From: a virus
Taxonomy: Duplodnaviria > Heunggongvirae > Uroviricota > Caudoviricetes
IMG/VR virus record: IMGVR_UViG_2778261393_000007
Coordinates: 1-13,076 of that record
DNA: 13,076 nucleotides
Reading direction: 5' to 3' (one strand)
In this document: piece by piece, positions 1,801 to 2,090 of the stretch
How the letters are laid out: each line of letters opens with the position of its first letter
Position numbering within the stretch: position 1 is the first letter of the stretch
Notes under the pieces: generated by a model
Told to the model about the DNA's origin: nothing
Databases searched by the model: none
What the model saw: the letters and a program-made list of their open reading frames with translations, nothing else
Program-made: the position numbers and the translations under genes

Positions 1801-2090
1801 CTTAGGAAATCTTAGGGGGCTGGTTGACACTTTCCGGCTTAAGACCTTAACAAATCTTAACATCGCAGGTTGACACACTTGACACTTTTTCGCGAAAAAC
1901 CTTATCAAACCTTAGCATTTCTAAGCATGGCAACTTGACACTTTTCGCGATTTTTTCGGCTTTTTGACGTAGTAAATCTGGCGCAAAGCCAGTAACGGCG
2001 GGGTTTACAGCGAGGTTGACACTTTTTCGCGTTCAGAGTGTAAAGTGTCAACCCGGCGGACGGCCTGACTTGACACTTTTTCGCGAATTT
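1801..2090 (+). repeat. iteron-like array: 16-bp direct repeats TTGACACTTTTTCGCG plus 10-bp-phased CTTA doublets
   Basis: Full copies at 1879-1894, 2016-2031, 2070-2085; 15-mer (4 T) at 1935-1949; partial copies at 1824-1837 and 1870-1877; inverted partial at 2042-2053 forming a perfect 12-bp inverted repeat GGTTGACACTTT with 2014-2025. CTTAGG/CTTAAC/ACCTTA doublets with 10-bp phasing at 1801-1816, 1846-1862, 1899-1914. Confidence 0.8.

Follow-up and report, generated by a model that had tools for sequence, protein, structure and literature searches.

A conserved 10-mer array beside a gene for a Nu1/Rpp-type DNA-binding domain: a candidate packaging-recognition region in a satellite related to phage-inducible chromosomal islands

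The stretch of DNA considered here is IMG/VR virus record IMGVR_UViG_2778261393_000007, positions 1 to 13,076, assigned to the Caudoviricetes. We refer to these 13,076 nucleotides as a whole as the window. At 1801-2090 the window carries an array of short repeats, which begins just past the 3′ end of a gene for a protein of 174 amino acids (aa). The array is a real element, conserved across genera, and we believe that it might serve as a packaging-recognition region for that adjacent protein. Coordinates are given on the plus strand of the window throughout, the array and its flanks were read over 1500-2700, and repeats were located with a repeat finder. The features at this locus are the following.

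2099..2623, minus strand: gene for the 174-aa protein, with a predicted Nu1/Rpp-type winged helix-turn-helix (HTH) domain at residues 1-43, followed by a disordered linker and then a C-terminal domain of alpha/beta type
2070..2085, plus strand: copy A (TTGACACTTTTTCGCG), an exact 16-mer, 13 nt past the stop codon of the 174-aa gene
2042..2053, minus strand: copy B, inverted (AAAGTGTCAACC on the plus strand), a perfect 12-bp inverted repeat with 2014-2025
2014..2031, plus strand: copy C (GGTTGACACTTTTTCGCG), found by the repeat finder and the 16-mer scan, and conserved in other genera and in E. coli-type arrays
1978..2011, strand not applicable: central non-repeat block CTGGCGCAAAGCCAGTAACGGCGGGGTTTACAGC, adjoining copy C and kept in several genera
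1935..1949, plus strand: copy D (TTGACACTTTTCGCG), a 15-mer with one T fewer than the 16-mer
1868..1894, plus strand: partial copy E′ (TTGACACAC, at 1870), then copy E (1879-1894)
1822..1833, plus strand: copy F (GGTTGACACTTT), the distal edge of the array
1800..1926, strand not applicable: three CTTA-N6-CTTA doublets (1801/1811, 1846/1856, 1901/1911), one ahead of each distal copy
1612..1791, minus strand: open reading frame (ORF) of 59 aa with a Shine-Dalgarno sequence, directly after the array and present only in some related elements

The word TTGACAC occurs seven times in the 13-kb window against 1.74 expected, a number that none of 200 shuffles reached, and all seven occurrences fall within 253 bp (1824-2076), six of them direct and one inverted. 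The exact 16-mer TTGACACTTTTTCGCG is found at 1879, 2016 and 2070, where 0.21 matches with up to three mismatches would be expected and one of 200 shuffles gave three. The partial copy at 1824 reads TTGACACTTTCC. A preliminary description of this DNA, made from the letters alone, had already reported direct repeats with spacings of 56, 81 and 54 bp, partial copies and a 12-bp palindrome (2014-2025/2042-2053), and all of these are confirmed by our reading and by the repeat finder. The CTTA doublets phased at 10 bp are equally real, with five of the window's 11 YCTTAR words lying within 131 bp against 0.11 expected, and the TTGACA hexamer said to be embedded in the repeats is present at every site.

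Two other parts of that description need to be amended. The 16-mer copies exist as reported, but their TCGCG tail differs among elements, and it is the 10-mer TTGACACTTT and not the 16-mer that is the conserved unit. The GC-rich segment noted within the array is present (CGGCGGACGGCC at 2055-2066) but is not conserved, since it falls in the most variable spacer and is replaced by CTGGCAAGCTGC in strain 83972, and this non-conservation rules it out as a cosN. Taken as a whole, the array is bipartite, with three distal units of ~55 bp (each a doublet plus a 10-mer), the central block, and the proximal copies C, B and A in alternating orientation.

A near-identical region was recovered by megablast from 170 of 5,426 complete E. 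coli genomes, and relatives are present in Klebsiella, Enterobacter, Serratia, Pantoea and other genera. Strains 83972, O104:H4, S40 and N921 retain the core (G/C)(G/T)TTGACACTTT and vary in the TCGCG tail, and among 36 unique E. coli-type arrays the repeat copies are invariant (copy A is unchanged in all of them) and the spacers variable. Our cross-genus sample comprised 13 loci, with one representative genome per species, and motif arrays were found at 11 of these (in Escherichia ruysiae, Pantoea, Rouxiella, Serratia, Raoultella, Buttiauxella and Erwinia). The comparison with related satellites that the preliminary description had envisaged therefore turns out in favour of the repeats, which are retained beside homologues of the 174-aa gene while the spacers have diverged. 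Every exact copy of the 10-mer in the cross-genus loci lies inside an array.

The layout of these arrays is shared as well, and in this layout the 10-mer recurs just past homologues of the 174-aa gene in some ten genera of enterobacteria. Read in the sense of the gene, AAAGTGTCAA stands 11-21 nt past the stop codon in every genus examined, an oppositely oriented TTGACACTTT follows at +41-59 past the stop in most genera examined, a third copy is located at +67-83, and one to three more are distributed as far as ~+270. The sequence between copies is unrelated between genera, and the flanks diverge too. The CTTA doublets constitute a second conserved motif, which in other genera has the form ATGyTAAG-N3-TGnTAAG.

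A third conserved feature is the central block of ~30 nt beside copy C, which reads GCTGTAAnCCCCGCCrTTACTGGCTTTGC in gene sense (1978-2011 in the window) and is kept in Escherichia, Pantoea, Raoultella, Serratia, Erwinia and the viral contig L058. The block had no match in phage genomes, and it is possible that it represents a cleavage site or the site of a second protein. Within the block, CAGTAACGGCGGGG resembles the lambda sequence CAGGTTACGGGGCGG around the cosN nick, and copies C, B and A would then be oriented like R3, R2 and R1. We regard this likeness as unexplained and do not call CAGTAACGGCGGGG a cleavage site, because there is no cosQ beside it and no phage with the block. The central 16-mer GCCRTTACTGGCTTTG was also tried as a marker, and the scan of viral contigs yielded about as many matches as the chance estimate, which makes it uninformative.

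The 59-aa ORF on the far side is probably not part of the array system. It is missing in L002 and L003, and an extra gene separates it from the array in L004 (L002-L004 are the elements of E. coli O104:H4, S40 and N921). Some E. coli elements become homologous to the window exactly at copy F, at 1822 (three megablast matches). Given that this ORF is patchy or displaced and that homology starts at the distal copy, the array travels with the 174-aa gene. Searches of phage genomes gave no match to either the array or the 174-aa protein, and in the literature the 10-mer turns up only in primers and synthetic promoters.

Seven perfect TTGACA hexamers naturally bring to mind a cluster of sigma-70 promoters, as the preliminary description had suggested. 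A related idea is that the array acts as an RNA element whose direct and inverted copies pair in a read-through transcript, and copies A/B and B/C are indeed able to form 10-12-bp hairpins in sense RNA. We consider both proposals very improbable. Promoter-like sites (a -35 plus a -10 element at 16-18 bp) number zero in 1400-2800 against 1.6 expected by chance, and five of the hexamers are directed, in antisense, at the last part of the gene. For the arrays of a second protein family described below, the same scan was likewise empty, and we reject the view of the array as clustered promoters, given that no TTGACA there or in the window's array has a -10 partner at the proper distance. With regard to RNA, the fold of the sense transcript has a z-score of only -1.15 relative to shuffles, no Rfam family was matched, and the 10-mer is invariant rather than covarying.

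The 174-aa protein belongs to a family that is limited to Enterobacterales and that is nearly always annotated as hypothetical. An AlphaFold2 model (73 sequences; predicted local distance difference test score, pLDDT, of 88) arranges residues 1-43 as helix, helix, beta-wing and helix, leaves a linker at 45-55 disordered, and folds residues 62-165 into a compact alpha/beta domain. Residues 1-43 are the best-conserved part, with K4, Y7, A8, V13, S14, R15, Q16, Y19, K33 and D35 invariant in the 73 sequences. One member of the family, P0080 (E. coli, 226 aa), bears an AntA/AntB antirepressor domain (PF08346).

Pfam and NCBIfam return only sub-threshold HTH_17 and excisionase matches to the N-terminal domain. 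Among 38,880 phage protein families (PHROG), the best match is to the small-terminase family phrog_57 (residues 1-47, E 1.1e-8). This is the family of lambda Nu1, given that gpNu1 itself scores E 1.3e-76. RppA (E 5.3e-8) and RppC (E 3.7e-8) match phrog_57 over their N-terminal 40-48 residues only and at the same profile positions as the window domain, and hhalign places the window domain and Rpp in register (E 8.7e-4). RppA and RppC are experimentally validated packaging-redirection proteins of phage-inducible chromosomal islands (PICIs) (PMC6739421, PMC9026076). By these profile matches, the label ‘Nu1-like’ holds for the DNA-binding domain as well as it does for Rpp, and not for the remainder of the protein. 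The ‘Nu1/TerS-like’ name given to the gene in the preliminary description is thus apt for the N-terminal domain, but the C-terminal domain is unlike a small terminase (TerS). Full-length homology to RppA/B/C, including their C-terminal dimerisation helices, is absent from the 174-aa protein.

The association of motif and protein is most directly seen in a scan that used DNA only. The pattern TTGACACTTT-N10-40-AAAGTGTCAA was sought in 2.9 million viral contigs without any protein information, and 115 contigs contained this inverted pair, 107 of which encode a homologue of the 174-aa protein at most ~100 nt away, with identity down to 37%. Most of the other eight are compatible with chance on a rough estimate. 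Moreover, nature has provided two domain swaps. In L015 (Serratia aquatilis), the same N-terminal domain is joined to an otherwise different protein of 223 aa and the array is still present, and in the second family (186-209 aa), which has only residues 1-43 in common with the window protein (hhalign probability 96%), the gene also comes with an array of the 10-mer. Both swaps keep the array, and the motif is thereby tied to the N-terminal domain and not to the rest of the protein. In the L015 region (5974-10650), the swapped gene directly follows the primase gene and has one motif copy past it, with the main array 3.6 kb further on, beyond an inserted cargo of three genes.

The invariance of the 10-mer parallels that of the protein's recognition helix. 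Acidovorax proteins that are 40-48% identical in the domain have no such motif. A candidate covariation of the recognition-helix change T17A with TTGACAC versus TTTACAC was found to be inconsistent. In our judgement it is very probably the array to which the Nu1/Rpp-type domain of the adjacent protein binds. The earlier suggestion that the array is bound by a protein other than the primase also gains support.

The second family is informative with regard to position. Its dense array of the same 10-mer lies directly upstream of the gene and is preceded by a conserved stretch that is colinear with lambda cos (alignment A4). Within this stretch, (A/T)3TGGGTCC(T/C)TCC aligns with lambda cosQ, TTTACGGGTCCTTTCC. 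Some 20 nt on, CACGGG stands at the nick position and is followed by 12-13 GC-rich nucleotides (GGGCATTGCGCGCC; in L141, GGGCTGGGCGACGCC). Next comes GTTTCnCTAGCTATAAATTTTTGA, aligned with lambda GGTTTTCGCTATTTATGAAAATTTT, and thereafter the first TTGACACTTT. The second-family site and lambda cos share 35-41 ungapped identities over 76 positions, where the background mean is 19 and the 99.99th percentile 34. We also searched with an nhmmer profile of four second-family sites through 2.5 Mb of sequence, among which were four lambda-type cos sequences and all first-family loci. Lambda cos ranked first (E 1.7) and EcCICFT073 cos1 third (E 4.8), both full-length and in register, although neither value is significant for 2.5 Mb and the likeness is a weak one that was spotted post hoc. 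The position and order of the second-family elements are nevertheless those that a cos site requires.

In this second family the gene is followed by its own terminator, with no large-terminase gene, so that the arrangement is that of cos-rpp, unlike the cos-Nu1-A order of lambda. The loci L138:7660-8650 (on the same contig as L074), L135, L136, L137, L139 and L141 are self-contained modules, each with a diverged lambda-like cosQ/cosN, five to nine copies of TTGACACTTT, a gene for a 186-209-aa protein with the Nu1-type domain, and the terminator. The L138 module stands before myovirus tail genes (sheath, tube, tape measure and baseplate), and at other second-family loci its neighbours are tail or baseplate genes or else defence cargo. 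The 2-8 kb flanks of L135-L138 and L141 revealed neither terminase nor head genes, and these loci may represent phages, satellites with tail genes, or remnants.

Judged by its gene content, the element in the window is a PICI-like phage satellite of E. coli, with a P4-like integrase, a P4-alpha-like primase and, at the far end, a defence hotspot. Between 13076 and 1612 every gene lies on the minus strand, and the features outside the array region are as follows.

11823-13076, minus strand: P4-type tyrosine integrase
5868-7640, minus strand: D5/P4-alpha-like primase
5595-5871, both orientations: origin iterons CTGTTCAC, eight exact and at least 11 with variants, directly after the primase gene
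4649-5227, minus strand: ProQ/FinO-domain protein (Pfam E 6e-24), in the post-primase operon
2630-3301 and 3366-3959, minus strand: two ORFs of 223 aa and 197 aa, the N- and C-terminal parts of one head-module protein (phrog_6216/DUF2213)
1-1244, plus strand: convergent two-gene cassette, DUF3800 and a 163-aa protein, a candidate defence system in PADLOC (PDC-M04A/B, E 8e-98 and 9e-74)

Downstream of the integrase gene are genes for an AlpA/excisionase-like protein, an AntA/B antirepressor and an Icd-like protein. The ProQ/FinO gene is conserved in related E. coli elements, where it is next to a PerC-family regulator. The split head protein is 54% identical to a 430-aa protein of Escherichia phage Rac-SA53, whose gene sits between the portal/Mu-F-like genes and the capsid gene, and it may be a scaffold- or protease-like product that interferes with assembly of the helper capsid. 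Past the 59-aa ORF there is a weak terminator-like hairpin on the minus strand (~1551-1572, read by eye), and an AT-rich boundary (24-28% GC, 1400-1550) separates the satellite operon from the defence cassette. The same place in related elements is occupied by AAA+DUF4435 (PARIS-like), DUF4747 or PDC-M38A, and HTH proteins are not among the defence components known to PADLOC.

Diverse members of this family have only two modules in common, namely the primase and the HTH gene with its array, and the minimal L015 element consists of the primase, the HTH gene, cargo and the array along with a weak integrase-like match. The window element is not the published EcCICFT073 (c1503, rppA), whose cos1 is just upstream of rppA, and is a cousin of EcCIMP1. 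The relatives L002-L004 are integrated beside paoD and a LysR fragment, apparently in the region used by EcCIMP1 (between proA and yagU, at tRNA-Thr).

P4 requires two cis sites, ori and crr (the cis replication region). As the window replicon is P4-alpha-like, and as a bipartite array around a conserved non-repeat core recalls the architecture of origins or attachment (att) sites, the array could be imagined to be a second cis replication region, a site of concatemer resolution or recombination, or a centromere-like site. We think this quite unlikely. The real origin of the satellite is at 5595-5871, where CTGTTCAC matches the type I iteron of P4, TGTTCACC. These iterons are confined to that region except for one further copy inside the primase gene (7149), and there are none in the array. 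The array also has neither an AT-rich unwinding region (its GC content is 40-50%) nor a DnaA box, and the second replication site put forward in the preliminary description is disfavoured on these grounds. Furthermore, over 1.8 kb separate the array from the island end, so that it is no att arm, and it has no linked recombinase or partition ATPase.

A regulatory role, also raised in the preliminary description, is possible. The 174-aa protein could be a transcription factor with a MerR/AlpA/excisionase fold that coats the array at the border between late operon and hotspot and thereby represses, activates or insulates, for example by occluding the TTGACA -35 hexamers or by blocking read-through. 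The weak HTH_17 and excisionase matches would agree with this, as would the RefSeq annotation of some homologues as MerR-family regulators and the overlap of every site with a perfect -35 hexamer. A defence hotspot adjoins the array in the satellites and likewise in the prophage-like loci of the second family. In those loci the array precedes the gene, an order known from autoregulated genes, and the gene has its own terminator.

Nevertheless, we consider such an operator or insulator rather unlikely. Promoter-like pairs are absent from all arrays scanned, the array of the second family comes after a cosQ/cosN-like element, and the top phage-family match of the domain is Nu1 and no regulator. 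Six to seven sites over 260 bp, in two clusters and with two more conserved motifs, exceed the needs of an operator. In addition, no constant gene lies downstream of the array, since the cargo is convergent in the window and is inserted between gene and array in L009 and L015, and this speaks against an operator role.

We estimate at roughly one in two the probability that the array is a cosB/pac-like packaging-recognition region for a satellite-encoded adaptor of the Nu1/Rpp type. This appears to be the best-supported proposal for its function, and it draws on domain homology, the cosB position of the array in the sister family, the presence of TGACAC in a mapped PICI cosB, and topology. The topology is that of P4, with the last late gene followed by the cis site, the defence hotspot and att/int. 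Because origin and integration functions are placed elsewhere in the element, packaging would be the remaining core function for the HTH gene and its array.

The mapped site is the EcCICFT073-type cos1 of E. coli NCTC86 (L256:560-625), in which the only TGACAC within 1,283 bp is found at bp 51-56 from the cohesive end, in a site that is one base off the window's GGTTGACAC. This location falls within the 18-bp R3-PICI, the Rpp site proposed by Feiss et al. (PMC9026076). A swap of the cosB segment in a PICI cos1, with TGACAC at the start of the segment, transferred dependence on RppA (PMC6739421).

If the array does function in packaging, we envisage that the 174-aa protein would bind the TTGACACTTT words through its N-terminal winged helix and that these words would act as the R elements of lambda do. 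The six to seven sites would be used as two clusters, a proximal one in which A/B/C alternate like R3/R2/R1 and a distal one in which each of D/E/F is paired with a CTTA doublet, and both clusters together would build a bent nucleoprotein complex by which satellite concatemers are tagged. Recruitment of the helper terminase would fall to the C-terminal domain, and the terminase would cut nearby and package towards or away from the accessory genes. The analysis shows the repeats themselves, that they are conserved across genera, how strictly they accompany the DNA-binding domain, and that this domain is of the Nu1 type; that the protein binds the array, that the array has a role in packaging, that terminase is recruited and where it cleaves are what we infer. 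For an array that does serve packaging, a pac-type (headful) mechanism would be the likelier one.

A number of observations weigh against this packaging proposal. In the window, lambda cosN (GGGCGGCGACCT) has only 3-mismatch matches, which is chance level, and near-matches in strain 83972 fall outside the island. The window contains no GGGTCC...ACGG pattern, no match to lambda or second-family cos and no P2/P4-type cos, and nhmmer found no lambda-like or second-family cos in any of the first-family loci. The consensus for integration host factor (IHF), WATCAR-N4-TTR, is missing from both strands of 1780-2110. The array lies 3′ of its gene, whereas in lambda and in Rpp PICIs the site is upstream, and the cos likeness of the second family is itself weak, as noted above.

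The protein raises difficulties of its own. Its C-terminal domain has no relative among TerS, Rpp, solved or viral structures, and the same type of winged helix is found in excisionases and in MerR/AlpA regulators. Only the split head-protein homologue hints at a helper, and it points to the Rac-SA53 type. The TerS of that phage is in phrog_51 and is unrelated to the 174-aa protein, and for this reason Rpp-style mimicry of it is unsupported; TTGACACTTT is also absent from the packaging region of Rac-SA53. Finally, the 174-aa protein is 80-91% identical among elements whose presumed helper-specific morphogenesis genes differ, a constancy that would be odd for a helper-specific adaptor. The cosB/pac-like site of the preliminary description is favoured by the Nu1/Rpp-type domain, the co-occurrence of motif and domain and the cosB position in the second family, but the cosN or cosQ that would complete it was not found in the window.

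Comparison with known systems reveals partial likenesses only. As in lambda cosB (R3-I1-R2-R1, bound by gpNu1), a short element is repeated in alternating orientation next to a gene for a Nu1-type winged helix, and in the second family a cosQ/cosN-like element immediately precedes the array. In contrast to lambda, which has three 16-mers, the window has six to seven copies of the 10-mer TTGACACTTT over 260 bp, located 3′ of the gene without an IHF consensus, cosN or cosQ, and the 174-aa protein is without the oligomerisation and gpA-binding parts of Nu1.

The cos1 site of EcCICFT073 with RppA/RppC is similar in that a small satellite protein has an N-terminal Nu1-type domain with equal match strength to phrog_57, is encoded by the last gene of the post-primase operon, and has its cis site beside it, with TGACAC included in the proposed R3-PICI. 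However, Rpp islands have a helper-identical cosQ/cosN and a single R3-like site with no repeats (PMC9026076), unlike the multi-copy, cosN-free array of the window. The C-terminal domains of Rpp proteins are unrelated to that of the 174-aa protein, and the only helper candidate found for the window has a TerS of phrog_51 and not of the Nu1 type.

Bipartite pac sites are found in headful phages, as exemplified by pacL-pacC-pacR of SPP1 and the hexamer clusters of P1 pac. The window array resembles them in its two clusters of short repeats around a non-repeat centre with phased bends, and the likely helper head module (Rac-SA53-like, with a phrog_51 TerS, large terminase (TerL), portal and Mu-F-like protein) is of the headful type. 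The 174-aa protein, however, is no ring-forming TerS by sequence or by predicted fold.

In P4, the order of elements is psu, cos, defence hotspot and int (PMC9122126). The window is like P4 in that its cis site is the conserved inner border of a variable defence hotspot, where homology breaks at the distal edge of the array, and in that a P4-alpha-like replicon carries cargo, here a PADLOC candidate defence system. It differs because P4 copies the cos of its helper and encodes no DNA-binding specificity factor, and the window has no P2-type cos. EcCIMP1 represents a related E. coli satellite lineage with int, AlpA, AntA/B, DUF4222 and Icd, but it is without the 174-aa protein and without the motif. 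The window array differs from every described system in having many sites rather than one to three, a position 3′ of the gene, no cosN and a new C-terminal domain.

We also offer a broader conjecture, which we regard as doubtful at present. The Nu1-type domain and its TTGACACTTT array might together be a portable ‘package-me’ module, one that is combined with at least three unrelated C-terminal domains and that is deployed both in PICI-like satellites, where it is cosN-free, and in tail-gene clusters with their own lambda-like cos. If true, a satellite adaptor distinct from both TerS and Rpp would deliver the DNA to a headful helper terminase in a new manner, and lateral transduction of the neighbouring defence hotspot would likewise start from the array.

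Satellites of the window type are common and bear anti-phage defence cargo, and yet they are without terS, rpp or a helper-like cos. Satellite classifiers rate related elements such as EcCIMP1 as incomplete, and for EcCIMP1, the one relative that has been characterised, the packaging mechanism is stated to be unknown (PMC11773190). The array and the 174-aa protein provide a defined cis element and a candidate specificity protein, with which the question of how these islands are packaged becomes directly testable. The array and its gene would also serve as an annotation marker for such islands. Moreover, if packaging does start at the array, its position would predict which of the adjoining defence genes are co-transduced.

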